DNA from: a virus
Length of the DNA stretch: 64,000 nucleotides
Virus record (IMG/VR): IMGVR_UViG_3300042691_025267
Coordinates: 16,387 to 80,386 of that record
Direction: 5' to 3' (one strand)
This document shows, in pieces, positions 26,755 to 63,579 of this stretch (positions within the stretch are counted from its first letter, which is position 1; each line of letters begins with the position of its first letter). The notes beneath the pieces were generated by a model. The model searched no databases. It saw only the letters and a list, made by a program, of their open reading frames with translations, and was not told the DNA's origin. Both the position numbers and the translations under genes were made by a program.

Positions 26755-26978
26755 TTACCTTTTGGACATGCACTTGGTCCTTTTGGACTATATACTTTTT
26801 TTGACAATGGACATCCACATGCACCACAGATATGCGTCCGTATTAACATTTTAAACTCTTTGAACTCACACGCATCGCAAACTTCTGCTCTACGTTCAGC
26901 AGTTTCTTTTTGTTCAATAGTTGGATTACTGGCACGATGCCATGCAGTGATAATTTCTCGTATATCAGGAATATTCAT
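26742..26978 (-). CDS. Small Cys-rich (probably metal-binding) protein, DUF6171-like
   Basis: R...CDACE...CGACGC...K...CPKGKW. Confidence 0.7.
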   Translation of the reverse strand: MNIPDIREIITAWHRASNPTIEQKETAERRAEVCDACEFKEFKMLIRTHICGACGCPLSKKVYSPKGPSACPKGKWEV

Positions 26979-27694
26979 ATTGGAAATTCATAATTAAAAT
27001 ATACAAAATCGTCGTGAAACAAATATTTCACCAAGTTCTTAAATTTTTCTGAGTTAATATCTATATTAATTTTTATTTTTTCCTTGGGTGTGATATTTTC
27101 TTGTTTAATTACAGATGTGTCATATCCCAACGTGACTTCTATCCAATCATTAAATTCGTTTATATTTTCATATCTAAATATTTTAACCTTTGGTTTGTAC
27201 GCCCATTCTACTTGAGTTGTAAAAAATGAGGACACAAACCCCGGTCCGTCTGCATCAAAAATTAACTGTAAATTATTTATATATTTTGGTACACAATTTT
27301 TATAAAACGAGTCATAACAAAAATCGTAAAAAAACTTTTCCGATTGAAATATGTCTATAAAGTTAAATCCCTTCGTCCTTGGATCAGTTTCTTCAATTTT
27401 AATTCTTTGTTTTGAATCGACATCAAACTGATATGTGGTTTTATATACGTTTCCTTGTAAATACGAATCACGTTTAAACTTCATGAAATATAGTGCTGAA
27501 ATAAATCTTTTATACGGATTTCTTATTACGGTAAACGCCGGAATATCTATGTGTTCTTTAGTATATGGATCGTGTGTATGTAAAAAGTTTTCACCGATCT
27601 CTGGGAAAAATAACTTCGTATATGCAATGGTTCCTGTTTTTGGTATTTTTATATAAAAAAACTTATTATTATTAATTCTTGAAGTAACTATCAT
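26975..27694 (-). CDS. Sulfotransferase family 2 protein
   Basis: 5'-PSB IKIPKTGT, 3'-PB RNPYKRFIS, FRYEN, DDFVYFNY. Start moved to ATG 27694. Confidence 0.8.
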   Translation of the reverse strand: MIVTSRINNNKFFYIKIPKTGTIAYTKLFFPEIGENFLHTHDPYTKEHIDIPAFTVIRNPYKRFISALYFMKFKRDSYLQGNVYKTTYQFDVDSKQRIKIEETDPRTKGFNFIDIFQSEKFFYDFCYDSFYKNCVPKYINNLQLIFDADGPGFVSSFFTTQVEWAYKPKVKIFRYENINEFNDWIEVTLGYDTSVIKQENITPKEKIKINIDINSEKFKNLVKYLFHDDFVYFNYEFPI

Positions 27695-27695
27695 A

Positions 27696-29234
27696 TTAAG
27701 CTTGTGTAAAACATTCACCATTAGAACATCCGCAACTGTACCCTTTGGGGGGGATAGCACCACAGGTCTGAAAGCAAAACCCTTCGCATGCAGCAGGTAT
27801 TACCACTATTGTACCATTTTCTTCTTTATATTGATACACTTCTTCCGTTGTAGATTCTTCTGGATCATTTATATATGTACCTATCAACAACGGGTATACT
27901 TCTAACTGTGTATCATTTTGATCTACTACTTTGATAAATATTCTCGTATTTTTAACATAATTAACATCCGTTGGACTAAACCTAATAGTATTAGTAGTTG
28001 TGTCAATCGTAACCCACTCAGGATAATATCTACGTATGTTACCGAAAACAACATCATCTATGTCTATTCCATAGGCATATTGATCATTTAATTCTAATAT
28101 TAATTCATACTCTGTACCAATCTGTACATTTATTTTTTCTTTCGGGATATTTTTTATAAACTTATCAAATGATGAGATGTATAGTATACTATTTGGTGTT
28201 GTGCCATAGATACTTTCATTTCTAAACAAAATATCAGTAATTCCACTATTAATTACTATGAATTGTATGTGGTATGCAGTAAGATTATTCGTTGAATTTA
28301 AATCTTTTATATATTGTGCAACTACCCCCGACGTTAATGCAGCAGCAAGTGAAGTACCAGAAGATTCTTTTATAGTACCGTCTATGTTTAGAACATTAAC
28401 TCCAATTCCTGGCGCAAAAATATCTACATCGGGCCCCCAGTTTGAACCAGCTCCACCCCCCCAACTAATAACTCTATCATATGGATCGGATGCACCTACA
28501 CCTATCACCGTATCTAACCCCACGGGCGATAGATTATTTGCGTCTGACATGGTGTTACCTGCTGCGGCCACTACTACAAAATTACTATCTTGCAATTCTT
28601 TAATTTTTGTATCAAGAATTTTACTTCGTGGAATAGTCCATGAGCAATTTACTACAGCAACTTCGGTTATATCGGTTCGGTCTTGCAAAATTGCGTCAAA
28701 TGCAAGTAACAAATCACTTATGTTAATCACTGCTGCCATTTCAATTCTTACGTTTTTTAATTCTACGTTAGTTGCTACACCAAGTGTGCTACCAACTATT
28801 AGACTTGCCATAGCAGTACCGTGACCCAACTCGTCAGAAAAATCACCATTGAAACTATAACAGTTAACAATATTTGCGTCAACTAATTCTGGTAACGTTG
28901 CGTTTATTCCACTATCAATCAAATAAACTTTTACTCCATCCCCATGATTTAATGGAAAATACTTTTCTTTCATTGGAAGTGCATTAGAAATAATTCTTAA
29001 TTGGTGCCACTCCGAATTAGATGGATGTACTTCCGTACTCAAGTCTTCTTCTATATCTAATACACCAGATATGTTCGTAAATACGTCTTCTGATTCGCAC
29101 GATACATTGACTACCTGCATGGAAGTAAATATACGATTTACTACTATACCTTGATTGGTCATACTGCTAAGTAAATTTTCTATATTAATATCTTTTTCAA
29201 AAACTACATTATAGTTTTTCATAATAATCCTCAA
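27696..29234 (-). CDS. S8 subtilase with I9-like prodomain, beta-rich C-domain and Cys-rich tail
   Basis: LIDSG, GHGT, NCSW, AAAGN, SGTSLAA; terminal CEGFCFQTC...CGC...C. Confidence 0.88.
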   Translation of the reverse strand: MRIIMKNYNVVFEKDINIENLLSSMTNQGIVVNRIFTSMQVVNVSCESEDVFTNISGVLDIEEDLSTEVHPSNSEWHQLRIISNALPMKEKYFPLNHGDGVKVYLIDSGINATLPELVDANIVNCYSFNGDFSDELGHGTAMASLIVGSTLGVATNVELKNVRIEMAAVINISDLLLAFDAILQDRTDITEVAVVNCSWTIPRSKILDTKIKELQDSNFVVVAAAGNTMSDANNLSPVGLDTVIGVGASDPYDRVISWGGGAGSNWGPDVDIFAPGIGVNVLNIDGTIKESSGTSLAAALTSGVVAQYIKDLNSTNNLTAYHIQFIVINSGITDILFRNESIYGTTPNSILYISSFDKFIKNIPKEKINVQIGTEYELILELNDQYAYGIDIDDVVFGNIRRYYPEWVTIDTTTNTIRFSPTDVNYVKNTRIFIKVVDQNDTQLEVYPLLIGTYINDPEESTTEEVYQYKEENGTIVVIPAACEGFCFQTCGAIPPKGYSCGCSNGECFTQA

Positions 29235-29251
29235 TCAAAGTACTTGAATTT

Positions 29252-29839
29252 TCATATAAGTACGTCATTTATATTTAATAAATTTGCAGCCCACTGACGT
29301 TCCATGCAGAAGTAACACCCACCACACTTCTCCACACCATCTTTATTTTTTATACCACATGACCTAGTTAATTTCAACAAATCCAACACATTCTCTGTAA
29401 CATACAATTGCATTATTTCTTTTTTATCCATATCAATAAACGGTCTGATATGTTTATCATTGTAAGGAGGGCCCCTAAACGGTGGTGTATCGTTTTTTAT
29501 GTATATAGTGGGGGTAAATTCATCCGTTAGTACTTTATTACATCCACTATATACATACCCGCCTTCCGTCAATAATATGTTTTCCACCAACTCCCGTATA
29601 TTGTAGTTTTTATATAATTTTTTATTACTAAAGTTAATTCCTTTCATAGTAAACCATTCCTGTACTCTCTTTACATTATTCACCGCATCTGCGGTTGGCA
29701 TCGTATACGAGAGAATCGGGATGGTCCTATTTTCTTCATAGAGTTGCTTTTGTAATAAAAATAATAAAATAGAACTATCCATTCCGCCAGAAAATAATAC
29801 GTTAATTTTTTCGCAGTCGGATGGTATTTTTATTGTCAT
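29252..29839 (-). CDS. QueC-like PP-loop ATPase (copy 1)
   Basis: LFSGGMDS; TRSC...CGGCYFCMER zinc site. Confidence 0.75.
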   Translation of the reverse strand: MTIKIPSDCEKINVLFSGGMDSSILLFLLQKQLYEENRTIPILSYTMPTADAVNNVKRVQEWFTMKGINFSNKKLYKNYNIRELVENILLTEGGYVYSGCNKVLTDEFTPTIYIKNDTPPFRGPPYNDKHIRPFIDMDKKEIMQLYVTENVLDLLKLTRSCGIKNKDGVEKCGGCYFCMERQWAANLLNINDVLI

Positions 29840-29852
29840 ATATAAGTATCAA

Positions 29853-30626
29853 TTATATTCCCATTTGCTTACGAATGTCGGTTGCGCTGATCGCTTCTGT
29901 GGACGCGTCCAGATTGATTTTCTCCACCTTATAGCCCACATCTCTACCGTAATACACGCCGGTAATGTTTGGTAGGAATATCACTTCAAATTTTCCTTGA
30001 TATTTGTCATTTAATTTTTTATAAATGAAATCAGATACTTCTTCATAATCAAACGGATTCTTTTCATCAATGTTGTGGGTATTGCGGACCCCAATAAGTA
30101 CCTGTCCTTCTTTTTCCAGGATGGTTTCAAACAATTTCAAATGACCATCGTGGAATGGCTGGAATCGTCCAATCATCAATCCTGTGGGTGCTTGCCAATC
30201 AAATTCTGGAACCGGCTCCATCTTTTTAGTAAGGCGTGCGATAATCTCGTCAGTTTGTTCACCGACATCACCCCATGCAGTAATTTCCACATCTACTACT
30301 TCTGGTCGTTGGAATACCTTATTGGTGTCCTCAAACCGACCTTCGTTGATTGTATTCATAAACACGATATAGTCGGGAGCAAACGCATCTCTGGTTTCTT
30401 CTAATGGACACACGAAATCGGCAACTACGTGGTCTGAACTGGCAATATCGGCAAGATGATACATTCTATCCGCCTGTCGGAGCCGTCCTTCTTCACTGAA
30501 GTCCCAATCATTAAACATCTTACGAACTTCGTCTGCATTAAAATATGCGGCTTTCAACTTCTCTGCCAACACTTTGGAAAGGGTCGTTTTTCCAGACCCC
30601 GGTAATCCCATAACTAAAATTTTCAT
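29853..30626 (-). CDS. cysC: Adenylylsulfate kinase fused to HxGH nucleotidyltransferase domain
   Basis: GLPGSGKTT, NADEVRK, DFSEEGR, DFVCP; C-terminal half GRFQPFHDGH...NPF...ISATDIR. Confidence 0.82.
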   Translation of the reverse strand: MKILVMGLPGSGKTTLSKVLAEKLKAAYFNADEVRKMFNDWDFSEEGRLRQADRMYHLADIASSDHVVADFVCPLEETRDAFAPDYIVFMNTINEGRFEDTNKVFQRPEVVDVEITAWGDVGEQTDEIIARLTKKMEPVPEFDWQAPTGLMIGRFQPFHDGHLKLFETILEKEGQVLIGVRNTHNIDEKNPFDYEEVSDFIYKKLNDKYQGKFEVIFLPNITGVYYGRDVGYKVEKINLDASTEAISATDIRKQMGI

Positions 30627-30633
30627 ATAACCC

Positions 30634-30843
30634 TCATTCTTTAATTCCGTACGATACCCATTTGTACCATACTCGTTCGTGTAGAAAATATAACACCATT
30701 TTGGTCAGTACTTCCGCACCACCAATTGACAACCCAACTTTCCAATTACCCGATATGAGTCCTGCGAGTATTATGGTGTCTAGTGTACCAACAGCTCTCC
30801 AACTAATCGTCTTTGCTATATGTCGTTTTACATGTACTGTCAT
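30634..30843 (-). CDS. DUF2061-like small membrane protein
   Basis: KTISWR...LYFLHERVW with hydrophobic core. Confidence 0.85.
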   Translation of the reverse strand: MTVHVKRHIAKTISWRAVGTLDTIILAGLISGNWKVGLSIGGAEVLTKMVLYFLHERVWYKWVSYGIKE

Positions 30844-31390
30844 AATATGAATAGTTAATTGCCCAAGTTCGTTCTATACAATTTAAACAACTTCCGCAAT
30901 GTCCATATTTTTGTAAATAACAACTGTGCGTAAGTTCCAGTAGTTCCCAAATATTTTCGTTCCTATATAATTGGACTACTTCGTGCTTATACATATCTTT
31001 GAATGGTATCAAGACTTGTGGATATTCAAAAAATTTTCTCTCTGGAAACTGAGGCATAAATTTATTACTTCCGATAACAAACTGATCCACCTCTCCAGTT
31101 CTTAGATACAATTTAATCCACCTAGTAAACGTTCTATTACTTGTTGAATCTTTATCGTTAATTTCTTCTGGTGGTATTATACTTGTGTTTAGTTTTGTGT
31201 TTATCCAACTTAAAATATTACGAATTCTATCCATACAAATCGTTGATTGAATCATTGTATAACACCGTATGTTTACATTCAATTTAGCTAATAGGTATAA
31301 TAGCAACGAACTCTCTAGGCCACCTGACAAATATAGTCCAATATTATTTGTTGTTGGGCTTATACTAATTAAATTGGACACAGATGTCAT
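30803..31390 (-). CDS. QueC-like PP-loop ATPase (copy 2)
   Basis: LSGGLES; THSC...HCGSCLNCIER. Confidence 0.72.
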   Translation of the reverse strand: MTSVSNLISISPTTNNIGLYLSGGLESSLLLYLLAKLNVNIRCYTMIQSTICMDRIRNILSWINTKLNTSIIPPEEINDKDSTSNRTFTRWIKLYLRTGEVDQFVIGSNKFMPQFPERKFFEYPQVLIPFKDMYKHEVVQLYRNENIWELLELTHSCYLQKYGHCGSCLNCIERTWAINYSYYDSTCKTTYSKDD

Positions 31391-32025
31391 AAGTATGTAA
31401 TACTTGGTTCCAATAATTCATAGTCGTCTTTATATAGATTCATACACATCTCTTGTATTTTTTGCATGTCTCTAAATTTAGCAGGAGTAATATTAAAGTT
31501 ATCAATTGCAGAAGGTCTAGCTTTTACAGTGTCGCCAAATGTTAAATAAATCCATTTTGTATACTGGTCCATTGATACAATTTTATACTCTTTTATGTCT
31601 TGGACGGATTCGTTATAAGCAACCTCTATATTAACGGGTGGGATGTTATAAAAATAATCCATCTGGGATCTAGTGTGCATATCCAGTCTATAGTTTTTTA
31701 AAATCAATTCCTTTGCATTTAAAAAATCAGATAGTAAATCATGTCCACGACTTTTAGGAATAAATAATGGTATGTGTTCAACTTTAACAGTTTTATATAA
31801 AAATGGTTCGTATATAAATTGATTGTAAAACGACAATAATCTTATGCATGGATCTCTATATAGGAAAGTTTTGTGTTCTGCTTCTGTAATTACATTTTTA
31901 AATATGGGAACGTGAGTCACATCTGTCAAATTGTACTTAAATACATTATTTACTAGATGTGATGATCCATTTCTTGAAGGAGTTACGATGAGATGCCTTT
32001 TTTTTAAATCATAAAACACTCGCAC
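31387..32025 (-). CDS. Sulfotransferase-like protein
   Basis: PSRNGSS, RDPCIRLLSFY, HTRSQ, LYKDDYELL. Confidence 0.6.
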   Translation of the reverse strand: MRVFYDLKKRHLIVTPSRNGSSHLVNNVFKYNLTDVTHVPIFKNVITEAEHKTFLYRDPCIRLLSFYNQFIYEPFLYKTVKVEHIPLFIPKSRGHDLLSDFLNAKELILKNYRLDMHTRSQMDYFYNIPPVNIEVAYNESVQDIKEYKIVSMDQYTKWIYLTFGDTVKARPSAIDNFNITPAKFRDMQKIQEMCMNLYKDDYELLEPSITYL

Positions 32026-32048
32026 AAAAAATTCTCAACAAATTATAG

Positions 32049-32678
32049 TCAGAGATATGTAATGTTTGGTTCTAGTAATTCGTAATCGTCTTTATACAAC
32101 GTCATACATAAATCTTGTATTCTTTGCATATTACGAAAATTAGAAGGATTGATGATAATACTATCTAACGCAGACGTTGATTGCGTAGTTTTTTTATCTA
32201 CAAACGTCAGTTTTAGCCATTTGGCATATTGATTGATTGAAACTATTTCATAGTCACTTATATTTTGGTCATATCGTTCATCTTTGAAATAGTCACTCTG
32301 CGGGGTTGTATGAAAATCTTCCTTATAATTTTTTATCAATTTATCGGTAGCGAGAATCATATCAGATAGTAAATCGTTTCCACGAGTTACCGGTTTAAAT
32401 AATTTATTGGCTAAATTCGTATCTTGATCTTCCTTGGCAAATGTTTTTACTGCCTGTGTATCAAATACAAATCTTTTATAATATGACATCAGTCTAACAC
32501 AGGGATCTCTGTATAAAAAGGTTTTTTTCTCGACTTCCGAAATTATACCATTAAATATAGGACTGTGAGTTACCTCGGTTAATTTGTATTCTATTGCGTG
32601 ATGATGTAGATGCGAAGATCCATTGCGAAATGGCACCACTATGAGATGTCGTTGACTTATATTGTAAAATATTTTCAT
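32049..32678 (-). CDS. Sulfotransferase-like protein (tandem paralog)
   Basis: PFRNGSS, RDPCVRLMSYY, HTTPQ, LYKDDYELL; aligns along its length with 31387-32025. Confidence 0.6.
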   Translation of the reverse strand: MKIFYNISQRHLIVVPFRNGSSHLHHHAIEYKLTEVTHSPIFNGIISEVEKKTFLYRDPCVRLMSYYKRFVFDTQAVKTFAKEDQDTNLANKLFKPVTRGNDLLSDMILATDKLIKNYKEDFHTTPQSDYFKDERYDQNISDYEIVSINQYAKWLKLTFVDKKTTQSTSALDSIIINPSNFRNMQRIQDLCMTLYKDDYELLEPNITYL

Positions 32679-34175
32679 TTATAGTACCGTTACTTTATAA
32701 AAATGTTCAAACTCAAGTGCATCGTTTCGTGTATTTACAATAGGTTGCCCCTTGATATTCAAACTGGTGTTTAGTAACATAGGGCACCCCGTTTCCTCAT
32801 ACCACGACATTAATAGTTGATAATATCCTGGATTATTTTCTTTAGTTACCGTTTGAACTCGTGAGGTACCATCGGCGTGAATAATTGCAGGAAACTCCTC
32901 TGGACGTTTACACTTTACTACATACTGCATATACGGACTTTCATCTGTCACCATATCAAAATAGTCAGCCGCATGTTCTTGGAGAATGGAAGGAGCAAAC
33001 GGACGAAACTTCTGTCGGCGTTTGATTGCATTCACCGTATCCTTAATTTCTGGACCCCGTGGGTCTGCTAATAAACTTCTATTACCCAACGCACGGGGTC
33101 CAAATTCTGCTCGCCCATTTGCCACTCCTACTAATTTATTCGTTTTCAATTCAGAAATCAACCCCCCAACGGGATATTCTCCTTCAATATTATACCCTAG
33201 AAATGGACTAGTGAATTGAATATGTTCGTTAGTATATGATAAGATTGCTCCTAGACTGTTTCCCGCATCGCCTGGATTAGGTATGATCCATACATTCTTA
33301 AAGTATTCCAACGTTATTGGATTAGCAACGCAATTCAGTGCGCATCCACCACCTAATACCAGATTATCAGATTTTATCAACTCTTTGGTCTTTTTTAAAA
33401 GATCACGAAAGTATAGTTCGTATACATACTGCGTTGCAGCTGCTATATCATACAAATCCTGCGGATCGTTGGTTCGGTTCAATTCAGGAAACCACCAAGA
33501 ACATCCACGATGTAAGTTGTGTTTTAATCGCAATAAATTTGATTTATAATAGAATTCATTCATATATTCTTTTTTATCAAAAAAATCTTCTATTATCATC
33601 GCAGAGTATTTGTGCGGATCACCATATGCGGCCATGCCCATGAGAATATATTCTTCTTCATTTGGTTTTAATCCCACCCGTTGCGTCATGGCAGAATACC
33701 ACAATCCTAGACTATGAGGATAACCAATACCTAATTTGTTGGTAAGTTTTGTACCTTTTCCTTCCCAAATTGTTGTCGTATCAAATTCACCAATTGCATC
33801 AATAATAAGAACTGCTGCTTCTTGAAACTGCGATGTATAGTATCCCGCCGATGCGTGACTTTTGTGATGGCCGGTAATTTTGACGGGAGCAGTGATTCCA
33901 TAGGTGGACAGATATCGTCGTATATTATTTTCTTTAATACGCAATCCTTGACCAGCATATAGTTGTCGTAGGGTTTTTACATATGGATTCTCGTACCAAA
34001 CAACGGACGATGGCTTTCCATATCGTAATGCATCCTTAATTAACTCCGGATGTAGATCTTTGTCGTTTTTATTTTTTGAATACCGTTCGCTTTGTGACGC
34101 AAATACCAACGAGTTATCTTTTATTACCGATAATGCAGCGTCATGACTGTTAGCAGAGATTCCCCATATTACCAT
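32679..34175 (-). CDS. O-carbamoyltransferase (NodU/CmcH/TobZ family)
   Basis: HDAA, ERYSKNK, HHKSHA, DAIGE, GGCALN, EFGPRALGNRS, FRPFAPS, DGTSRVQTV, LLNTSLN. Confidence 0.95.
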   Translation of the reverse strand: MVIWGISANSHDAALSVIKDNSLVFASQSERYSKNKNDKDLHPELIKDALRYGKPSSVVWYENPYVKTLRQLYAGQGLRIKENNIRRYLSTYGITAPVKITGHHKSHASAGYYTSQFQEAAVLIIDAIGEFDTTTIWEGKGTKLTNKLGIGYPHSLGLWYSAMTQRVGLKPNEEEYILMGMAAYGDPHKYSAMIIEDFFDKKEYMNEFYYKSNLLRLKHNLHRGCSWWFPELNRTNDPQDLYDIAAATQYVYELYFRDLLKKTKELIKSDNLVLGGGCALNCVANPITLEYFKNVWIIPNPGDAGNSLGAILSYTNEHIQFTSPFLGYNIEGEYPVGGLISELKTNKLVGVANGRAEFGPRALGNRSLLADPRGPEIKDTVNAIKRRQKFRPFAPSILQEHAADYFDMVTDESPYMQYVVKCKRPEEFPAIIHADGTSRVQTVTKENNPGYYQLLMSWYEETGCPMLLNTSLNIKGQPIVNTRNDALEFEHFYKVTVL

Positions 34176-34981
34176 TGTTTAGGTACTCCTAAATGTTTAT
34201 TTTCATACTTCTCAGGAGGAGTTTTGTTTATAAGATAAGAATGTTCATAGGAAATGAGATTAAACAAACGTTCAGTTATTATTGCATAACCTTTCTCGTT
34301 GGGATGTCCGCAAAATGCAACGGTATCTAAATCTTTATTTGCACGTACTTCGTGTAAAATATCTCGATGTTCTGGATACAGAATTTTATGGGTAAAGTTT
34401 AAACTTGCTGAATTTTTCATAAGGACATCTAACCCCCGACCTTCGTCGGCATTAACATTAATATAAAAAAATTTATAGTTAGATAATGTACATATGTTTT
34501 TTATTAGATTAACATAAAAATATGACTCCAGTACAACATCTCTGGTAGGATTATTACCCAAAAAATTGAAATAACTATCAGATAAATTCTGATATTCTGG
34601 TGTCATGTTTGTTACGTGCGAAAGTACCGATGAGATTTTTCCGTTTCTATAAAAACTTATTCTAGTAGAAAATGTAACCATCCATATTACCAATACGTCA
34701 TATTCGTCGGAAAGATTTCTATCAGAAAACAATTCCATCCATCGTTTGACGGTTTCGGAATTTGAACACCCACCGTGACCTAAATTCCATAAGTAATGAT
34801 AACCCAACTTCTTTTGCAGTTGATGTGGCCATCCCATAACATGAAATCTATCAGTACTGGCATTATACGGAGAAATTGTTTTATCTAACGGCTTTCTTCG
34901 TTCGTTCAACAAAGAAGGTTCATAACACCCAACTCCCTCCGTATAGGAACATCCTAATGTTATTAGAAGTTTCTTTTTCAT
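34169..34981 (-). CDS. SGNH/GDSL-like protein
   Basis: LGCSYTEG, NLGHGGCSN, C-terminal GHPN. Confidence 0.7.
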   Translation of the reverse strand: MKKKLLITLGCSYTEGVGCYEPSLLNERRKPLDKTISPYNASTDRFHVMGWPHQLQKKLGYHYLWNLGHGGCSNSETVKRWMELFSDRNLSDEYDVLVIWMVTFSTRISFYRNGKISSVLSHVTNMTPEYQNLSDSYFNFLGNNPTRDVVLESYFYVNLIKNICTLSNYKFFYINVNADEGRGLDVLMKNSASLNFTHKILYPEHRDILHEVRANKDLDTVAFCGHPNEKGYAIITERLFNLISYEHSYLINKTPPEKYENKHLGVPKQW

Positions 34982-34995
34982 ATAATTATCCGTAA

Positions 34996-36745: not shown

Positions 36746-36757
36746 TTTATGGATCTC

Positions 36758-39275: not shown

Positions 39276-39276
39276 A

Positions 39277-40533: not shown

Positions 40534-40566
40534 AACCCCTCAACTTAAAGTAATTTTTAATATATA

Positions 40567-41580: not shown

Positions 41581-41583
41581 ATA

Positions 41584-49256: not shown

Positions 49257-49330
49257 GTTTTTTGATCTCCTGTATTTTACGTTTGGTTACATACTTTTCG
49301 GTAATATTGTGTATACCGAAAATAATCCAA

Positions 49331-51550: not shown

Positions 51551-51564
51551 AACTATTTAACCCC

Positions 51565-53836: not shown

Positions 53837-53867
53837 AAAAACCTCGTTGTAAATGTAACCGTTGTTG

Positions 53868-53896
53868 AATATAACTAGATGATGTACCGTTGTCAA
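53868..53896 (-). promoter_or_regulatory. Sigma70-like promoter heading the tailoring-enzyme genes
   Basis: TTGACA-17-TATATT. Confidence 0.72.
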
Positions 53897-53905
53897 TACC
53901 CACAA

Positions 53906-55177: not shown

Positions 55178-55192
55178 AAATAACTCCTGGTT

Positions 55193-55378
55193 TTATACTA
55201 ATCTAGTTGCCGATACCGTTTGGTATAACGGGCCAGTTGGTCCTACAAAATTTACCACATACTCGGCCAAAGAAGCAGTTGCAGGAAATCCCGCCAAAGA
55301 TGTTGTAACTCCTACACTAGCACTTATGGCAAATGAACTACTGACTGGAATTCCTAGTGGTGAAAATGATATACTCAT
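55193..55378 (-). CDS. Small protein related to the mucin-like protein N-terminus
   Basis: MSISFSPLGIPVSSSFAISAS...GPTGP versus MSIFFPFGVPSTSSYAETAS...GPQG. Confidence 0.7.
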   Translation of the reverse strand: MSISFSPLGIPVSSSFAISASVGVTTSLAGFPATASLAEYVVNFVGPTGPLYQTVSATRLV

Positions 55379-55391
55379 AGGTTAAGTCAAC

Positions 55392-55625
55392 TCACGTAAA
55401 TGTACAAACTTCCACTTTTCCACTAGCAACCATTTCCAAATATTGAGCAGTTGTTAACAAACATATACCCTTTCCACGGGAACCCGACTGTGGGTATAAT
55501 ACTTCCCCTGCATTAGAAGAAGACAGTACATATTGAATATAACTTATTTTACCTGCATAAGAAGCACTGATTGCGTATGCTGCGTTGTATAGAGAACCCG
55601 AACCATATGGATAGACTGATAGCAC
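55392..55625 (-). CDS. Small protein of the same family
   Basis: MLSVYPYG...AYAISASYA. Confidence 0.65.
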   Translation of the reverse strand: MLSVYPYGSGSLYNAAYAISASYAGKISYIQYVLSSSNAGEVLYPQSGSRGKGICLLTTAQYLEMVASGKVEVCTFT

Positions 55626-55626
55626 C

Positions 55627-56490
55627 TTAGTTCTCCAGAGAAAATACGTGTATTGATGCCGAAATATTTGCAGTTCCAGCAGTTGCCATGTTTTCTATGA
55701 CATAGTAAATTTCATGTTCTCCAACCATTTTAGTTCTATCAATTCTAGTAAGATTCAAGTTCGTTCCCATGTTTTGTAAATTTGCCCCGATTATTTTTGG
55801 TACAAAATACGTGGTTTCACTGCCAGACAAAATTGCATCTACTATCAAATATGAAGTTGCGTTTGATTCTGTTGCGAACGGGCGTGTTATTTCTGTAGCA
55901 TTATACAAAGAAGCTGATGTAGAGTATAATCTCACTCTTGCCCGTACGTCTGAACCGGAAACTGACGCACTTACTAATAAGTAGGTTTGTGGAATAGATG
56001 AATCCACTAATGACCCAGATGCTCTACTACCAGCACTCAAATTGTGTTGTATAGTAGGCAACGTCATTCTACTTGCTGCGCTAATGTCAGGATTTTCCAA
56101 TAGGTAACGATTAAATGTTATGGTTGGGTATGGAGGTGACGTTACGCCATCAATTTTATAATACGTTAACTTTGATGAGGGATTCTGAACAACAGAATAT
56201 AATACGGGATCTACTGTATGAGTCGTTGCGTTACTCATACTGAAATCCCCTATCAATGCCGTTTCCGCTGATATGTTTGTGTTTCCGAATACCCTATTTT
56301 TTTCTACCGCATTGTCTCTGCTGGATTGATTATCGTATAATCGTAATCTACAAGGAACGGTGTTGGTTATGTTTAATAACACATATGCGGATCCTAACTC
56401 AATTGACCCGGATCCTACGGAATCTGTTTGTAATGAGATGGACTCACGTTTTAAGGAAACACCCAGTTTGATATATTCAGCTAATCCCAT
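55627..56490 (-). CDS. Hypothetical Ser-rich protein with internal duplication, possibly structural
   Basis: Two halves share SGS...Y.L....R.RLY...S..NA.E..R.F...LI.D. Confidence 0.7.
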   Translation of the reverse strand: MGLAEYIKLGVSLKRESISLQTDSVGSGSIELGSAYVLLNITNTVPCRLRLYDNQSSRDNAVEKNRVFGNTNISAETALIGDFSMSNATTHTVDPVLYSVVQNPSSKLTYYKIDGVTSPPYPTITFNRYLLENPDISAASRMTLPTIQHNLSAGSRASGSLVDSSIPQTYLLVSASVSGSDVRARVRLYSTSASLYNATEITRPFATESNATSYLIVDAILSGSETTYFVPKIIGANLQNMGTNLNLTRIDRTKMVGEHEIYYVIENMATAGTANISASIHVFSLEN

Positions 56491-56531
56491 ATATTATATT
56501 TAAAGTGTACTTACATAAATAGTTTATACTA

Positions 56532-58877
56532 TTAGTTTTCTCTACGTACGTCTGGGGAGTAATGTGAAATTCTGTTATGATTTATAGGACTTGCCAGTAA
56601 AACCGCAGGTGTAAGTTCTCCTCGTAACGTACGTTGGAACATATAACTCATCCACGTTTGTTCATATGGGTTTTCCCAAGGCGTTTCTAAAAACATTTTA
56701 TAATTTCCAGTTTTACTAACTAACATGGGCCAGTTTGCATAGTATACATCGCCAACTGCATAAGATATGCCACCATGAACTTCTATTCTATTAAACTTTG
56801 TTCTCGGAGCGTTGGGATCCAATCCAGTAATAGGTAGTTGGTCATAATCTGGCCACAATTCCGTACGAATGCTTTGTGGAACATTATACCAAGAAACTTG
56901 GATATTATTATCCATATAAACTTCTGTATACGACACTTTCAGGAAATCCAGGCTTTCTTTTGCCACTATTTCATGAGTAAGATCATACAAATTGGGTATG
57001 TAAGTTTTGAACCCATTTCTACAGGTATTTCCCGTGATAGGTTCATGTAAACACATATCATCCTCAAAAAAGTAATAATACTGACTATCGCTTTCGTGAA
57101 AATGTTTAGCGGCGTAGTGTCTCCCGCGATTAATTCCTAAGTTAGTTCCTGTTTGGATGTGTTCAAACCCATAATGTTTACACAAAAAATCATATCTTGC
57201 AAACGTTGAACTATCTGTTGAATTGTTAATTAAAATTTTTCTTGGTCTGTTTATGAAGTCTGGGTGTAGTTCAAAACTTTTCAGTAATGTTTCAAACTGT
57301 TCAGGGAAATTAAATCCCAATACGTATAATGAAGTTTTATCTTGTTTGTTGTATCTATTATGTGAAATTATTTTTTTAGTGTTATCAATAGGTTCCAACG
57401 CAACAGAGTCGTTTATCAAATCTTGAATAAACTTCACTATCAATCCATTATCACTCAACGCATATCTGCGGTAAATATTAGGTTCTAGATGAGACATGAT
57501 ACTAAAAATACTTTCTTCGGTACCCATGTAGCCATTATCAAGGGAGTCTTTTAGTAGTGTATAATACACTGCATTTGCTTCACTCAAAACATCTTTGTGA
57601 CCACCAAATAATCCGCCACGACACACATAATTGACACGTGTACGTGCATATCGGTTCATTGCACTGAAGTCAAACCCATGAATTTCTGTTTGAGTCTGGT
57701 ATGGGTAACTTAAAAATAAAAATGTGTCTAGGTGATCTATTATCTTATCAAGACAATGGTTCTCAGTAAAAAACTTCTCATAGACGGTATTAGTTATTCC
57801 CGCATCTAACCAAATAAAATAATCGTTATTAAAGACATTCATCAACTTCGCATCGTGTAACATGAACATCTTTGATTGTACTATTGGGTTATACCACTCG
57901 TTAACTGCTTGTGGACTGTTGACTAACCATCCAGTTTCTCCTGTTTGATTATACCACGACGGATTTGTACGAATTGCTTGGGTACTATCCCAAAAAGGAC
58001 CATATAAATTTTTGATATCTTCCAACTCAAATATTTTAACATGCGTATTTGTTTTGTTTCTATTTGAATTCTGCCACACTAAATATTCCAGATCTTTTGG
58101 TAGATACAAAAACATGTTTACTGGAATGTCTAGAAACTTTTTGAAATTTTCTATGTAATGATCAAAAGATCTACCTTCCCGTTGAATATTCCATAACCCA
58201 CTAACCAATGTTAGGTTAACCGGAGGTTTAGTTTCAATGTGTAAAGTACTACAGAGTTCTTCAAAGCTGTGAACTTGTCCTTTACCACTATTATTTTTTA
58301 TGATGACAATAAAATTTCCACCAAAAAAGTATTCGTGCGCATCGGCAATGTTTTTAAAGTTTTTCTCAAACTCTTCAAATATATTAGTACCGTCGCCGCC
58401 ACCGCCACAATCTTCAATTATATACAATCCGTCTGGTTTAACTTTTCTGAAAAAGTTATACATGGTATATAATTGACCAATTCCCGTGTGTAAACCATCG
58501 TCAATAATAATATCAAGAGATTCGTCTTGAAAATACTGGTTACACTTAACTGTGTCCACAGAACTGAATATAAATGTTTCCAGTCGTTCCTCTTTCATTC
58601 GACAATCTTCTGCAACATCCACTCCATAAATTTGAGCATTTTGGAAGTAGTCTCTCCATGCACGAAGTGATCCACCTGGCTTATAGTGTGGATACAATCC
58701 TGTATTTCCGACAAACGTACTTGGTATTTCTGGCTGCAAAGTACCGATGCCGATTTCTAACAATGACTGCACCGTCTTTTGTCTTGATCGTAACAATTGA
58801 TCGTACAGAGGAGCGTAACCACTTCTAACTTTATCAGAACCGTATTTTTCTACATAAAAACTTATTGTATCATTCAT
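56532..58877 (-). CDS. Three-domain fusion: sugar O-methyltransferase-like + HtrL/YibB-like + GT-A glycosyltransferase
   Basis: LLEIGIG..GGSLRAWRDYF..GVD..DIIIDDGLH..YIIED; LVSGLWNI..IWLDAG..GGLFGG..GTEE; LINNS..NLGI..FFEDD. Confidence 0.75.
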   Translation of the reverse strand: MNDTISFYVEKYGSDKVRSGYAPLYDQLLRSRQKTVQSLLEIGIGTLQPEIPSTFVGNTGLYPHYKPGGSLRAWRDYFQNAQIYGVDVAEDCRMKEERLETFIFSSVDTVKCNQYFQDESLDIIIDDGLHTGIGQLYTMYNFFRKVKPDGLYIIEDCGGGGDGTNIFEEFEKNFKNIADAHEYFFGGNFIVIIKNNSGKGQVHSFEELCSTLHIETKPPVNLTLVSGLWNIQREGRSFDHYIENFKKFLDIPVNMFLYLPKDLEYLVWQNSNRNKTNTHVKIFELEDIKNLYGPFWDSTQAIRTNPSWYNQTGETGWLVNSPQAVNEWYNPIVQSKMFMLHDAKLMNVFNNDYFIWLDAGITNTVYEKFFTENHCLDKIIDHLDTFLFLSYPYQTQTEIHGFDFSAMNRYARTRVNYVCRGGLFGGHKDVLSEANAVYYTLLKDSLDNGYMGTEESIFSIMSHLEPNIYRRYALSDNGLIVKFIQDLINDSVALEPIDNTKKIISHNRYNKQDKTSLYVLGFNFPEQFETLLKSFELHPDFINRPRKILINNSTDSSTFARYDFLCKHYGFEHIQTGTNLGINRGRHYAAKHFHESDSQYYYFFEDDMCLHEPITGNTCRNGFKTYIPNLYDLTHEIVAKESLDFLKVSYTEVYMDNNIQVSWYNVPQSIRTELWPDYDQLPITGLDPNAPRTKFNRIEVHGGISYAVGDVYYANWPMLVSKTGNYKMFLETPWENPYEQTWMSYMFQRTLRGELTPAVLLASPINHNRISHYSPDVRREN

Positions 58878-58906
58878 ATTACGTCTACCTGAAACATGTG
58901 TTTAAA

Positions 58907-59254: not shown

Positions 59255-59259
59255 ATTAT

Positions 59260-60051
59260 TTACCTGTTCATGTATCCGAGTTGTTCAAACTCAGGCGGTA
59301 CATAAAATCTGATATGTAGTGGGTCGCCACATCCTTGTCCGGGATCGTGGGCAATTCTACCCGTTACAGGAAAACTATTTCCTACCAATGTACCCCATTC
59401 TTCAATAGAATTATACGTGGGATCATTTTCATAAGGAACCACTAATTTATGTATATCTTTGCTTGCTAAATAGGCAGACAGTAATACGTCATCCGACATG
59501 GTTTTTCCTACAAAGTCCGTAAATAACTCTTCCGTAAAAAATCCTCTTTTATAGGAAACGGACTTGTAATGTTGAAGTACTCGTACACGAGTAGGTGTGG
59601 GAATCATACTTACAAAGTGATCACGAATATCACTAAATATAGGACCATCAACGACATCTAATGCGTCATATCCAATAGCACAATTTTTATATAGTTCTTG
59701 ATTCCGTACATGTTCTTTAATCATGTCTGGGTGATACCGTTGGTCGTCATCCACGATAATAAGAATCGTATCATCGTTTGTTATTCGTCGGATGGTGGGT
59801 AGTATCTTAGTCACTGGACCTTCATCTTCAACTCTGAATATTTTAACTTTATCCAGCGATGTTAGCCATTCAGGAATAGTGTACTCAGTATTATGAAGTT
59901 TATATGTCCGAGGTATATTAAAATGTATTTCAAAATCATCATAGTTTTGCTCACACAATGACATAATACAAGAATATATACCTTCTTCCCCGTAATGTGT
60001 ATTACTTAAACGTTCGGGAATTGTTGTTAATGATACTATAACATTTGTCAT
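59260..60051 (-). CDS. GT-A glycosyltransferase-like protein
   Basis: IVSLTTIPER, DEGPVTKILP, IIVDDD, DDVLLS. Confidence 0.72.
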   Translation of the reverse strand: MTNVIVSLTTIPERLSNTHYGEEGIYSCIMSLCEQNYDDFEIHFNIPRTYKLHNTEYTIPEWLTSLDKVKIFRVEDEGPVTKILPTIRRITNDDTILIIVDDDQRYHPDMIKEHVRNQELYKNCAIGYDALDVVDGPIFSDIRDHFVSMIPTPTRVRVLQHYKSVSYKRGFFTEELFTDFVGKTMSDDVLLSAYLASKDIHKLVVPYENDPTYNSIEEWGTLVGNSFPVTGRIAHDPGQGCGDPLHIRFYVPPEFEQLGYMNR

Positions 60052-61055
60052 GATAACCACTCGTCTAAATTTAACTGATTATAAGTATTAAGTACTTGCT
60101 TCTCAATGATTAAATTATCTTCGTAATACTTTCGAGAGTTTAACGAAATCATATGTAAGAACTCATCATTATGTATTACATCACTATATCGTTGATGTAA
60201 TAATTTTACATATTTTTCTCCTGCGGTACCATAATTTTCCATATCAACCGGACGATCTATTGAAACATAATGATGATTTGGTATCAATGGAGGATTAAAA
60301 TTGTTTAAATATTCAAATCTGATAAACGGGATTCCAAGTCCCATCAATTCTATATCTCTATAACAAAATTCTCCTCTGCCATCAACGGATAATGCAAGTT
60401 TAGTATCTACTAAATGTGTCAGATATTCTTCTTCTGGTACTGGACTGAAGTTATCGTGTATGATTGCTGGATCAATTACGTTTAGTATAGTGCGTGCTTC
60501 CAGAGAGGTTCCTTTAAAATATAATTTTTTATTTGTTGGGGAGTGGGTTTTTCTAATATTGTAATATTTGTCTATAAGGATGGGATCAATATAGGGAAAA
60601 TATGTCCACGGTTCACATTTGTAAGATTCTTCATGAAAAAAATACTTTACAATTGAATCCCTGTGCTGCGACATCAACGCTTTCTTAAAATGAGTATTTT
60701 TGTAAAATCGTACCGCACACCCAAGCGTATCATCTCTAGTTGATATTAGAAAAAAATCTTTAGTGTGTTGGTTTTCTATGATATATTCGGATTCAAAAAT
60801 ACCAAATTCATCTTCATGTGATAGTAGTTTAATATTAAACGGTTTAGAATGTGCGTGTTCAAATTCTCTACACTCTTCTACATGAAATTTTGTAGTTAAA
60901 AATCGCGTAAATTCATCAAAAAATATATTATATCGTCTATTTTTATATGTGTATGAATTTGTAGGATTATAAATTTTTATGTGTGACATTATATGATATA
61001 CTCCACTTTTATATGTGTATGAATTTGTAGGATTATAAATTTTTATGTGTGACAT
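60048..61055 (-). CDS. Glycosyltransferase-like protein (GT-B/exostosin-like C-domain) with duplicated start
   Basis: LYFKG, EEYL, ALSVDGRGEFCYRDIELMGLGIPFI; second in-frame start at 60989. Confidence 0.55.
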   Translation of the reverse strand: MSHIKIYNPTNSYTYKSGVYHIMSHIKIYNPTNSYTYKNRRYNIFFDEFTRFLTTKFHVEECREFEHAHSKPFNIKLLSHEDEFGIFESEYIIENQHTKDFFLISTRDDTLGCAVRFYKNTHFKKALMSQHRDSIVKYFFHEESYKCEPWTYFPYIDPILIDKYYNIRKTHSPTNKKLYFKGTSLEARTILNVIDPAIIHDNFSPVPEEEYLTHLVDTKLALSVDGRGEFCYRDIELMGLGIPFIRFEYLNNFNPPLIPNHHYVSIDRPVDMENYGTAGEKYVKLLHQRYSDVIHNDEFLHMISLNSRKYYEDNLIIEKQVLNTYNQLNLDEWLS

Positions 61056-61072
61056 TATATGATATACTCCAC
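60941..61072. repeat. Exact 66-bp tandem duplication across a gene junction
   Basis: 60941-61006 equals 61007-61072; covers the end of the upstream gene (VEYII-stop) and MSHIKIYNPTNSYTYK. Confidence 0.92.
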
Positions 61073-62308
61073 ACGTTCACACCACCCACGATCCTTGCTA
61101 TACGCCCAGAACACGACTTTCTTCGGACTCTTTCCCGTTAAGAACATTTCTTCATAGTGAATCGGAATATCATGTTCCATGAAATTTTTTAGTTGATGGT
61201 CTACAATATATCGTTGATTCAATCCAATTCCATTTTCATCATCAAATGCAACGAGAATGTGTTGGTAGTCCGTTGCTGGAAAGTCTTTCTTGTGTATGGT
61301 TACCAGATGATAGAATGATTTCATGAAGGAGTTTTCCCACTCTTCCTCATTATCTATCATTGGGTTTGGTGGAAATTTATTCTCAATGGTATATGATTGA
61401 ACAGATTTTTTCTTGAAGTGTATCCCTGCATACTTTTCAAAATCTCGTAACGATCTAACCGTGCCCAAATCATATCCTGTGAGATCAAACCCGCCGTCTT
61501 CGGTTTTCAACAACTGTCGGACTTTTGCTCGGGCACGATCTTGAAATAGTGCCCAATTCTCACCACGTTTATGTTGGTCGTCCCACAACAATTTTCCATC
61601 GCGTTCTTCCCGCATCGTGGCGTGCCAAATGACTAATTTGTGTGGGTGAAATAAATCATATCCGTGGGTAAACGAACGAACTGTGAGATTCAATTCTTCG
61701 CCACTGAAATAGATGTCACTGTCATGTTTGATTTCCTTTGCCCACTCCGTACGAGCAAATGCAAAGTGACCCGAAATAAAACGGGAATGGAATGGCTCCG
61801 TCATAGTTTGCCAATTCGGTATCCCGCCAGGACGAATGAAGATAGTTCCATGTGGATAGAAGGCAGCAAACTGTTGTTGCCACGGTTCCATCGTTCGTCC
61901 TTCGGGATCCTTGAACGGATTGTAATAGGGGAGGTAGCCCGTAAGAATTGGTTTAAATCCTTTCTTCTCCAACCCAGCATGCATGTTAAGTAATTCAACA
62001 TCCCAATGTTCAATAAATCGGTGATGTGCGTCTAACTGGAGAATGTAATCTTCATCGGTGATCAGTTCATTGATACGGAATCGTGCATACGGCAATCCCT
62101 TTGCTTGTTCATACGGAATATCAATAATCTTAAATCGTTTATCTTTCCGAAACTCGTCTACATTGTCAAACCCATCCGTTGGGTTAAATTGTCGGCAAAT
62201 ACCAAACCGCAATCGTTTCGGATACTTTGCTTGTGCAATTGCATCTTTTATGGTAGGAATGAGTTCCGGTTCTCTGTATGCGGGGAGGTGAATAAATATT
62301 GTTTTCAT
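61055..62308 (-). CDS. GT60-like polypeptide GlcNAc-transferase (copy 1)
   Basis: IFIHLPAYREPEL, AKGLPYAR, LQLDAHHRF..WD, ILTGY, SGHFAF, YFSGEE, FTHGYDLFHP, WH. Confidence 0.8.
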   Translation of the reverse strand: MKTIFIHLPAYREPELIPTIKDAIAQAKYPKRLRFGICRQFNPTDGFDNVDEFRKDKRFKIIDIPYEQAKGLPYARFRINELITDEDYILQLDAHHRFIEHWDVELLNMHAGLEKKGFKPILTGYLPYYNPFKDPEGRTMEPWQQQFAAFYPHGTIFIRPGGIPNWQTMTEPFHSRFISGHFAFARTEWAKEIKHDSDIYFSGEELNLTVRSFTHGYDLFHPHKLVIWHATMREERDGKLLWDDQHKRGENWALFQDRARAKVRQLLKTEDGGFDLTGYDLGTVRSLRDFEKYAGIHFKKKSVQSYTIENKFPPNPMIDNEEEWENSFMKSFYHLVTIHKKDFPATDYQHILVAFDDENGIGLNQRYIVDHQLKNFMEHDIPIHYEEMFLTGKSPKKVVFWAYSKDRGWCERVEYII

Positions 62309-63579
62309 CGTCTAAATACTCCCGTTAACCGCTCAGTAAAGCCTTTTGATTCACTCTGTGGCCAGACCACCCATCCATGTGGCAATTGCTCAGAATGGAA
62401 ACTTCTCCAGATATGAATAAATTTATCAGTTTCCAAAGGTACACTCAATATTTTTTCAATTTCTTCTTTAGTTGCGTCTTCACGATGGATTTCGTTTCCG
62501 TCTTTATCCGTAAATGCTACTGCCCAGAAAATATAATCATTTTCAGTAAACGTTGGTTTATAAAGGTCAATACACATTCTATGGTAGGATACTAAATGTT
62601 CCGTATGTGATTGTTCGTCCAATGAAATGGGTGGAATCGTTTTTTTCAACGTTTCTTTATGAACTCGCCGGGTACTGAACTCCAATCCAGCATACATCTC
62701 GTATTCTTTTAAGGTGCGTTTGGATTTTGTCAATGTCTTTTCTGACATCTCGTTATCCATTCCTAGTAGTTCCCGTCCATGCTTATACGAGTCTCTATCA
62801 AGTAATGCCCAGTCCTTATGATCATCCCAGTGCTTTTTCTTATTGTTTCTGGTGTACTCGTGCCAAATAAAGACACGATGGGGAGCAAACAAATCATATC
62901 CTGCCATATATGCTCGGACGGATAGATTAATTTCTTCCCCGTGAAAATAATAATTGGGATCGTATTCTACATCTTGACAGAATTTTCCATCGGCAAAAAT
63001 AAAATGTCCGGAGGCAAACCGTGTAGGAATTGGTTTGTCTAATTCTTTAAAATTATCAATAGTATGTGGAAGAAAATGTACTGGACCTTCTGGAGCAAAT
63101 CTATCAAACTCCATGACCCACGGCATATTTGTACGACCCTCTGGATCTTTAGCGGGATCAAAGCTAGGTAAATATGAGGTTAATACTGGGAGTGGGTGTT
63201 CTTTGGAACGGAGATTCTCTAACATACCAATTAATTCAACGTCCCAGTTCGGTTCAAACCGGTGATGTGAGTCTAATTGTAGAGTATATCGTTGTCCGTT
63301 ATATGCAGTATTTAATTTATGTCGGATCCAGCACGGACCCTTCGCATCACGATAATCAATATCAATAATATGAAAACGAGAATCATCTTTATACTCGTCT
63401 AAGTTGTCCCATTGTTCGTACGGAGAGTGCTGCCATCCAATAGCAAACTGTAGTCGTTCTGGATGGGTTGCTTTTCCAATACAGTCCCGCAACGTATTGA
63501 GTAGTTCGGGATCTCTGTATGCAGCAATCTGTACGTAAATTGTTGGATTAGAAACCGTTTTCTTTTTTCTTGGAGCCAT
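62305..63579 (-). CDS. GT60-like polypeptide GlcNAc-transferase (copy 2)
   Basis: IYVQIAAYRDPEL, AKGPCWIR, LQLDSHHRF..WD, VLTSY, SGHFIF, YDP..YFHGEE, GYDLFAP, WHEY. Confidence 0.82.
   Translation of the reverse strand: MAPRKKKTVSNPTIYVQIAAYRDPELLNTLRDCIGKATHPERLQFAIGWQHSPYEQWDNLDEYKDDSRFHIIDIDYRDAKGPCWIRHKLNTAYNGQRYTLQLDSHHRFEPNWDVELIGMLENLRSKEHPLPVLTSYLPSFDPAKDPEGRTNMPWVMEFDRFAPEGPVHFLPHTIDNFKELDKPIPTRFASGHFIFADGKFCQDVEYDPNYYFHGEEINLSVRAYMAGYDLFAPHRVFIWHEYTRNNKKKHWDDHKDWALLDRDSYKHGRELLGMDNEMSEKTLTKSKRTLKEYEMYAGLEFSTRRVHKETLKKTIPPISLDEQSHTEHLVSYHRMCIDLYKPTFTENDYIFWAVAFTDKDGNEIHREDATKEEIEKILSVPLETDKFIHIWRSFHSEQLPHGWVVWPQSESKGFTERLTGVFRR

Follow-up and report, generated by a model that had tools for sequence, protein, structure and literature searches.

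Phage virion glycosylation is known from few cases, and it alters immune recognition and host interaction. Among eukaryotic enzymes, the GT60 glycosyltransferase Gnt2 of Dictyostelium has PTVT spacers as its substrates. In Trypanosoma cruzi, a GT60 enzyme attaches alpha-N-acetylglucosamine (alpha-GlcNAc) to Thr of mucins (PMC3769586). Mycobacteriophage virion glycosylation, according to PMC10527164 as cited in PMC12619734, relies on other glycosyltransferase (GT) families and modifies the C-termini of capsid and tail-tube proteins. Virions of phage XacN1 yield at least two Schiff-stained glycoprotein bands, and the authors proposed the phage's own transferases as the makers of these glycoproteins (PMC5852040). 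An uncultured T4-like phage has a 183-kb genome with 12 radical SAM (S-adenosylmethionine) genes, which are treated there only as clients of iron-sulfur cluster supply, with no glycosyltransferase, carbamoyltransferase or fibre link (Nishimura et al. 2017, PMC5332604). Here we describe a gene island at positions 26975-63579 of a 64,000-nucleotide stretch of viral DNA (the window; bases 16387-80386 of the linear 80,386-bp IMG/VR virus contig IMGVR_UViG_3300042691_025267), in which two GT60-like transferases and a Thr/Ser/Pro repeat protein stand next to a block of radical SAM and sugar-tailoring genes. CheckV puts the completeness of the contig at 32%, which implies a phage genome of ~250 kb.

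On balance we favour reading the island as two phage glycosylation modules of predicted function that abut each other. The first, module A (53.9-63.6 kb), probably serves to O-glycosylate phage structural proteins at their Thr/Pro tracts, and module B, with its flank, fills ~27-53.9 kb. An earlier note on this stretch, made from its letters without database searches, had proposed a single 37-kb assembly line; the connection of GT60 with Thr/Pro-rich phage proteins held up, whereas the tailoring part turned out to be a separately distributed module.

GT60 genes and their Thr/Pro-rich neighbours

Module A comprises the features below (aa, amino acids), with identities given for three relatives, L090, L091 and L092, that were found by a search with the 287-aa protein encoded at 55627.

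62305..63579, minus strand: GT60-like glycosyltransferase 1, 424 aa (PF11397, E 6.8e-67, 226.8 bits, cut-off 21)
61055..62308, minus strand: GT60-like glycosyltransferase 2, 417 aa (PF11397, E 8.7e-53, 180.4 bits, cut-off 21)
60048..61055, minus strand: 335-aa protein, a regular GT60 partner (no Pfam hit; a C-terminal motif that may be GT-like)
59260..60060, minus strand: GT2-like glycosyltransferase, weak (PF00535, E 3.3e-4, below cut-off)
56532..58877, minus strand: 781-aa fusion of a weak N-terminal methyltransferase domain and an HtrL_YibB-like domain (PF09612, E 4.6e-10)
55627..56490, minus strand: 287-aa virus-only beta-rich protein directly before the Thr/Pro protein (56% identical, with this neighbour kept, in L090, L091 and L092)
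55193..55625, minus strand: a pair of small genes (77 and 61 aa), each kept as an open frame in L090
53906..55177, minus strand: Thr/Ser/Pro repeat protein, 423 aa, candidate acceptor

Both GT60 assignments of the earlier note are borne out, with PF11397 matches far above the cut-off. The two proteins are paralogues (36% identical). The first copy (62305-63579) is soluble, has a conserved ~90-aa C-terminal domain and is 41% identical to XacN1 ORF334, and the second (61055-62308) is 81% identical in L090. Both keep the metal motif D-[SA]-H-H-R-F, with DSH in copy 1 and DAH in copy 2, and D-S-H-H-R-F / D-A-H-H-R-F is invariant in five aligned phage GT60 homologues. The Thr/Ser/Pro repeat protein is likewise real: it consists of a conserved 95-aa N-domain, TPSVTQ/PTVT repeats, a Cys-rich knot and a second repeat tract, its repeat units are TPSVTQ and TPTVTPSITVSPSI, and Tandem Repeats Finder detects tandem repeats of 18-132 nt in its gene.

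An alignment-based scan of IMG/VR found at least 554 viral stretches that encode a GT60 relative, and the best 80 of these at least 554 loci (1.48 Mb) were compared with 80 GT60-free control loci (1.51 Mb). A Thr/Pro-rich open reading frame (ORF) lies within 10 kb in 38/80 GT60 loci. After dereplication at 90% it is present in 30 of 64 loci (15 directly upstream, on the same strand), against none of the 80 control loci under the same criterion, a linkage well beyond chance. The most constant partner of GT60 is the HtrL-like gene (65/80 loci), followed by homologues of 60048 (26/80), a GT2-like gene (18/80) and a carbamoyltransferase (16/80). The 95-aa N-domain was considered as a marker of all GT60 loci and rejected, as it occurs only in L090, L091 and L092 and its other hits are of low complexity.

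Synteny adds to this picture. The order in L090 (GT60, GT60, 60048-like, carbamoyltransferase-like, HtrL-like, 55627, two small ORFs, Thr/Pro protein) matches that of the window's module A, with identities of 56-81%. In L091 and L092 the order is 55627, a 474-aa Thr/Pro protein with Cys knots, GT60, three genes, HtrL-like and a helicase that is 81% identical to the one at window position 24002. Across these relatives the Thr/Pro protein retains its N-domain (74% identity in L090, 49% in L092), and the repeat sequences differ yet remain Thr/Pro-rich. Upstream of the L090 GT60 pair, on the same strand, lie a sheath-like fragment, a tube-like gene, a run of fibre genes and a leucine-rich-repeat protein; the sheath and tube genes were recognised by eye (the tube reaches only E 0.083 against the PDB), and the fibre N-terminus is matched in 355 phage records. 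With a tail-fibre-type gene also upstream of module A in L092, the recurrence of this module at the end of tail/fibre gene blocks in relatives is supported. As a separate observation, the fibre block of the closest relative (L177:10654-11004) encodes a 116-aa protein made mostly of V-T-T-V-T-T-V repeats, a possible Thr-rich acceptor.

The closest cultured GT60 homologues, at ~41% identity, belong to the jumbo phages XacN1, Xoo-sp13, CM1 and RAS14. Behind the XacN1 GT60 gene come a carbamoyltransferase and, three genes on, an HtrL-like homologue, and this set adjoins the gene of a 3313-aa Thr/Pro-linker protein, itself located after baseplate wedge genes.

Several smaller genes of module A deserve mention. 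The 287-aa product of 55627-56490 is probably a structural protein; its residues 8-133 bear a weak structural likeness to T4 gp9/10 N-domain clusters, which we treat as a lead only. The 77-, 61- and 423-aa proteins, encoded in tandem, have in common an N-terminal motif of ~25 aa (M-S-I-x-F-x-P-x-G-x-P-x-S-S-S-x-A-x-x-A-S) and unrelated C-termini; the motif may act as a leader or as a common peptide for attachment to the virion. The 56532-58877 protein belongs to a viral Atlas cluster of 3145 members. In the 60048-61055 ORF, the first ~16 residues are exactly duplicated (MSHIKIYNPTNSYTYK twice), which points to a recent tandem duplication of the gene start or to an alternative start.

From gene content, folds, synteny and co-occurrence, we infer a donor, an acceptor, an order of steps and a virion location for the glycan. 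The GT60 pair would attach the first N-acetylhexosamine (HexNAc), probably alpha-GlcNAc from UDP-GlcNAc (UDP, uridine diphosphate), to Thr/Ser residues in the Thr/Pro repeats, with the phage's 423-aa Thr/Pro protein as likely acceptor, perhaps together with other fibre proteins. Initiation would take place in the host cytoplasm while particles assemble. The HtrL-like, GT2-like and 60048 products would then lengthen the sugar. A PF13640 prolyl hydroxylase was not matched on the 80-kb contig (32% of the genome), so that Thr/Ser is a likelier acceptor than hydroxyproline and the system would not be of the Gnt1/Skp1 type.

A number of points weigh against our interpretation of module A. About half of the GT60 loci have no Thr/Pro ORF within 10 kb, and the nominal Fisher p of 2e-13 for GT60 with a Thr/Pro-rich ORF overstates the case, since the loci are mutually related and the controls come from few clades. 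Searches of the PDB by sequence and profile with the GT60 proteins matched no solved GT60 structure, literature searches for phage GT60 found nothing relevant, and we know of no bacterial or phage GT60 that has been characterised. Furthermore, the place of the 423-aa Thr/Pro protein in the virion is putative, and the glycan on these proteins is predicted from genes.

Composition of module B and its flank

The remaining part of the island, and the subtilase gene at its edge, comprise the following features.

51565..53905, minus strand: module B start, with a 176-aa protein, an Anp1-like GT-A (52686-53378) and a GT-A-fold transferase with a DGD motif (51565-52686)
43761..51550, minus strand: B12-binding radical SAM (739 aa, 49331), 213-aa protein, three twitch radical SAM, one short radical SAM (43761)
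38268..43858, minus strand: SGNH-like 42884; GT-B-fold paralogues 41584, 40567 and 38268; nucleoside-diphosphate (NDP)-sugar dehydrogenase 39277
34169..38280, minus strand: five SGNH-like proteins (37534, 36758, 35801, 34996, 34169), called from motifs, weak GDSL_2 and DUF6071 hits, and paralogy
32679..34175, minus strand: NodU/CmcH-type carbamoyltransferase (PF16861 E 5e-57, PF02543 E 1e-44)
26095..32678, minus strand: sulfotransferase-like 32049, 31387 and 26975; QueC-like PP-loop 30803 and 29252; fusion 29853; subtilases 27696 and 26095

All 35 island ORFs were annotated by Pfam and NCBIfam scans. Sixteen of the 35 are without a family match, and an all-against-all comparison sorts them into paralogue sets; a PHROGs search with ten island proteins lacking a Pfam family gave no match, and relaxing Pfam to E-values of up to 5 on the unassigned island proteins returned noise only.

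Much of what the earlier note had listed for this part was recovered, with some corrections. Its five radical SAM enzymes are confirmed by Pfam and NCBIfam. The three with an N-terminal twitch domain (44717, 45996, 47200) match NF033640 with E 1e-97 to 1e-111 and 326-371 bits (cut-off 170), and in each a Cys-rich auxiliary domain at the N-terminus precedes the CxxxCxxC core, with the Cys residues invariant in the alignment. The nearest solved radical SAM cores are those of viperin, BlsE and SkfB, and the N-terminal auxiliary domain resembles that of BtrN; given the likeness to viperin, BlsE and BtrN, the substrates of these enzymes lean to sugars or nucleotides. The UDP-sugar dehydrogenase is recognised in the broader form of an NDP-sugar dehydrogenase (39277-40533; TIGR03026 E 1.8e-48), and the carbamoyltransferase has strong Pfam matches. 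The replication block contains, at window 10551-11411, a further nucleotide-sugar-dehydrogenase-like gene, which is shorter (286 aa) and shares 25% identity with 39277.

Of the about eight further GT-like genes, seven to eight were recovered, with uneven support from fold models, weak Pfam matches or motifs only. The protein encoded at 52686-53378 is Anp1-like (E 1.3e-6), slightly short of the Pfam cut-off. PDB searches by sequence and profile were empty (no match for the GT-B family, noise only for the GT-A family), and folds were therefore modelled. The 51565 model (predicted local distance difference test, pLDDT, 66) has a GT-A fold and an invariant DGD motif, with chlorovirus A64R as best Foldseek hit (E 2e-4). 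The model of the 38268/40567/41584 set, for which 39 phage homologues were aligned, has a GT-B fold (pLDDT 81), and its top match, T4 beta-glucosyltransferase (VIA Z 12.8), is tied with fucosyltransferases, PimA and others.

Two claims survived in part. All six SGNH proteins (34169, 34996, 35801, 36758, 37534, 42884) have the block I motif G-[DCE]-S and a C-terminal His block (block V), but their Pfam matches are weak and the assignment is motif-based. Likewise, three sulfotransferase-like proteins can be recognised by motif: 26975 has IPKTGT and RNPYKRFIS (E 7e-4, 20.3 bits against a Pfam cut-off of 22), and 31387 and 32049 have degenerate 3'-phosphoadenosine-5'-phosphosulfate (PAPS) motifs only, with no family match. 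The fusion with an adenosine-5'-phosphosulfate (APS) kinase did not hold in the proposed form, as 29853 combines a P-loop kinase with a cytidylyl/adenylyl-transferase domain; the APS-kinase assignment is ambiguous, and no sulfotransferase forms part of the fusion.

From this composition, module B would make and transfer rare sugars by means of its NDP-sugar dehydrogenase, its radical SAM enzymes (of twitch and B12 types) and its GT-A/GT-B transferases, and would add carbamoyl, probably sulfate, acyl (or remove acyl) and amide groups. Its substrate in this phage may be the glycan of module A; in most phages it would work without GT60.

Independent distribution of the two modules

A scan with one twitch radical SAM protein showed that at least 203 viral stretches carry module B. 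Ten close relatives (L010-L019; 66-82% identity) keep its order: B12 radical SAM, 213-aa protein, three twitch, short radical SAM, SGNH-like, GT-B, dehydrogenase, GT-B and carbamoyltransferase. Another conserved layout, headed by two fibre-type genes, occurs in 70 more distant loci (L020-L089), carried by jumbo phages of 200-350 kb (e.g., L030:1-21000). It starts with a fibre protein that has an intramolecular-chaperone end, a Ser/Thr/Gly-rich fibre-type protein, two GT8-like genes and the GT-A family, and continues with 5-7 twitch radical SAM genes interleaved with the GT-B family, plus the carbamoyltransferase and often SGNH-like and amidinotransferase-like genes. The 51565 family is present in 64/70 of these loci and the carbamoyltransferase in 49/70. 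Module B was not found among cultured phages, and in bacterial genome contigs the scan with a single twitch protein gave only three hits, in metagenome-assembled genomes (MAGs) of Haliscomenobacter and Lishizhenia (Bacteroidota).

This distribution bears directly on the reading in which ~35 genes together equip the Thr/Pro protein with one mucin-type glycan that is sulfated, carbamoylated and modified by radical SAM enzymes, giving the virion an anionic coat. The island is an unbroken co-oriented run with short or overlapping junctions and no terminators detected between its parts, a carbamoyltransferase stands beside GT60 in XacN1 as well as in the 16 of 80 loci mentioned above, and the island includes a uronic-acid-forming dehydrogenase along with sulfotransferase-like genes. 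However, GT60 was found in none of five close relatives' contigs (from L010-L019, up to 119 kb) and in none of five near-complete radical-SAM genomes (317-352 kb); conversely, only one of five GT60 genomes (146-324 kb) has a twitch radical SAM gene, 120 kb from GT60, and none of the 80 GT60 loci has one. As the modules are distributed independently, the island need not be one pathway, and we regard a single integrated line as rather doubtful.

The same caution applies to the version in which the phage makes a mucin, with a lipid-carrier-free cytoplasmic O-HexNAc start by a eukaryote-type GT60 on a Thr/Pro-repeat virion protein, heavy tailoring by module B through sulfate, carbamoyl and acyl groups and radical SAM chemistry, and an anionic coat; this scenario we hold to be rather unlikely. 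The adjacency of modules A and B is confined to this lineage, which also counts against our interpretation, and their cooperation in one pathway, suggested by adjacency and co-orientation, is correspondingly uncertain and somewhat unlikely.

Two further explanations concern the radical SAM enzymes themselves. Their substrates, and those of the subtilases, could be the repeat protein or the motif-sharing small proteins, which would be modified and cleaved in the manner of ribosomally synthesised and post-translationally modified peptides (RiPPs). The common leader-like N-terminal motif of the three tandem genes, two S8 peptidases in the region and the best NCBIfam hits of the B12 radical SAM (RiPP C-methyltransferases, far below cut-offs) agree with such maturation. 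Yet L092 retains the motif on a 146-kb contig that lacks a twitch radical SAM, at least 70 module B loci have no such motif proteins, the nearest solved cores act on sugars or nucleotides, and glycosyltransferases dominate the module, so that we find RiPP-like maturation highly improbable.

A small-molecule product resembling an aminoglycoside would fit a module in which a carbamoyltransferase stands beside radical SAM enzymes of the twitch and B12 types and, among the relatives, an amidinotransferase-like protein. Module B showed neither a cyclitol synthase nor an aminotransferase, however, and its link to fibre genes argues otherwise, which makes this product highly improbable. Two glycosylation modules that meet here, the first probably aimed at phage structural proteins, stay our preferred interpretation.

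Genomic setting and other possible targets

All window genes are on the minus strand, including 35/35 ORFs of at least 80 aa in 26975-63579, and hydropathy identified only two single hydrophobic segments in the island and no multi-span proteins. The description of the island as co-oriented, with nearly all products soluble, is therefore accurate. Its G+C content is 32-36%, against 38-46% for the replication block, and the contig ends only 421 bases beyond it. Window positions 1-26000 contain genes for a family-B DNA polymerase (44% identical to the enzyme of Microcystis phage Mel-JY01), ribonucleotide reductase, DnaB-type helicase, exonuclease, UvsX-like recombinase, single-stranded DNA-binding protein and large virion-type proteins, one of them tape-measure-like. 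A nucleotide search of the window against cultured phages gave no matches. Promoter and terminator scans of the island were at or below shuffle expectation and defined no operon boundaries. The first 16 kb of the contig, outside the window, encode among others ClpP and a clamp loader.

The same 16 kb hold several genes of interest. Among nucleotide-metabolism genes, adjoining a dCMP-deaminase-like gene and 38 kb from the island, lies a gene for a 197-aa PglC-type phosphoglycosyl transferase (C1:4834-5427; Bac_transf E 1.5e-58) with an N-terminal membrane helix. An 895-aa TonB-dependent-receptor-like protein (C1:5879-8566; CarboxypepD_reg, Plug, beta-barrel) has an architecture typical of Bacteroidota SusC/RagA; it would be an unusual auxiliary gene and a clue to the host that agrees with the Haliscomenobacter and Lishizhenia MAG hits. 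Finally, the replication block contains two TET-associated glycosyltransferase (TAGT) genes (C1:10864-14175; E 1e-20 and 9e-40) and an SPPY-motif methyltransferase, which suggest glycosylated DNA bases as a prediction from these genes.

The earlier note had recognised no exporter, Wzy polymerase or initiator, and none is present in the window, but the PglC-like gene on the same contig means that the argument from a missing undecaprenyl-phosphate initiator fails at genome level. The presence of this initiator and of two TAGT genes is a further point against our interpretation, as it makes it possible that module B acts on a lipid-linked target or, with lower likelihood, on DNA. In the first case module B, perhaps with the PglC-like initiator, would remodel host lipopolysaccharide, capsule or a general O-glycan via undecaprenyl-phosphate intermediates and could, for example, block superinfection. 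Besides the initiator itself, it is in favour of this that peripheral GT-A/GT-B enzymes usually use lipid-linked sugars without membrane spans of their own, and that the Bacteroidota-type TonB-dependent receptor points to a host rich in surface glycans. Against it stand the distance of the initiator and its absence from all related loci examined, the position of module B directly behind fibre genes in distant relatives, and island scans that revealed no flippase, polymerase, ligase or exporter; an initiator combined with a flippase, polymerase or ABC exporter, as in Wzx/Wzy- or ABC-dependent loci, is missing from the island. We consider this explanation unlikely.

DNA hypermodification, in which some island enzymes would extend or decorate sugars on modified phage bases, draws on the TAGT pair and on the T4 beta-glucosyltransferase match of the GT-B model, tied as it is with many GT-B enzymes, and multi-sugar glycans on phage DNA are known (bioRxiv 10.1101/2023.12.21.572611). 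That study is, however, silent on carbamoyl, radical SAM, sulfotransferase and GT60. The literature yielded nothing relevant when carbamoyltransferase and radical SAM were looked up in connection with phage DNA modification. The TAGT pair lies 29 kb away from the island, no thymidylate-synthase-like/hydroxymethylase, TET/JBP or C5-methyltransferase gene was found on the contig (32% of the genome), and GT60 loci follow Thr/Pro proteins rather than replication genes. Overall, DNA as the target is very unlikely.

Comparison with known systems

If our interpretation is true, eukaryote-type mucin initiation, with GT60 and Thr/Pro repeats, is common among large environmental phages. Additionally, the analysis defines a second, uncharacterised cassette of 3-7 twitch radical SAM genes with glycosyltransferases and a carbamoyltransferase behind fibre genes, which is likely a source of new sugar chemistry.

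The protist GT60 enzymes, T. cruzi OGNT and Dictyostelium Gnt2, which begin mucin-type O-glycans at Thr within Thr/Pro-rich repeats, resemble the phage proteins in their PF11397 match and DxH-type metal motif, and the phage encodes next door a candidate acceptor with PTVT-like units. In contrast to these Golgi enzymes, the phage proteins are soluble and predicted to act in the bacterial cytoplasm, and they have the extra ~90-aa C-terminal domain. The glycan clusters of chlorovirus PBCV-1 (A64R) and of mimivirus fibrils offer a parallel of another kind, namely virus-encoded cytoplasmic, secretory-independent rare-sugar pathways for capsid or fibril proteins. They differ in host domain, enzyme families and linkage types, and the likeness of 51565 to A64R is that of a generic GT-A fold. 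As in the T4-like phages of Nishimura et al., several radical SAM genes stand in tandem at our locus, within a large environmental genome of myovirus-like type.

Mycobacteriophages (Freeman et al. 2023) and XacN1 likewise encode soluble transferases linked to structural proteins, and neither has the radical-SAM tailoring block. XacN1 goes further in its likeness, with a homologous set of GT60, carbamoyltransferase and HtrL-like genes in a phage whose virions carry stained glycoproteins, of which ORF334 is a putative source. Since XacN1 is cultured and its virion glycoproteins have been stained, the GT60 part of our interpretation is directly testable there.

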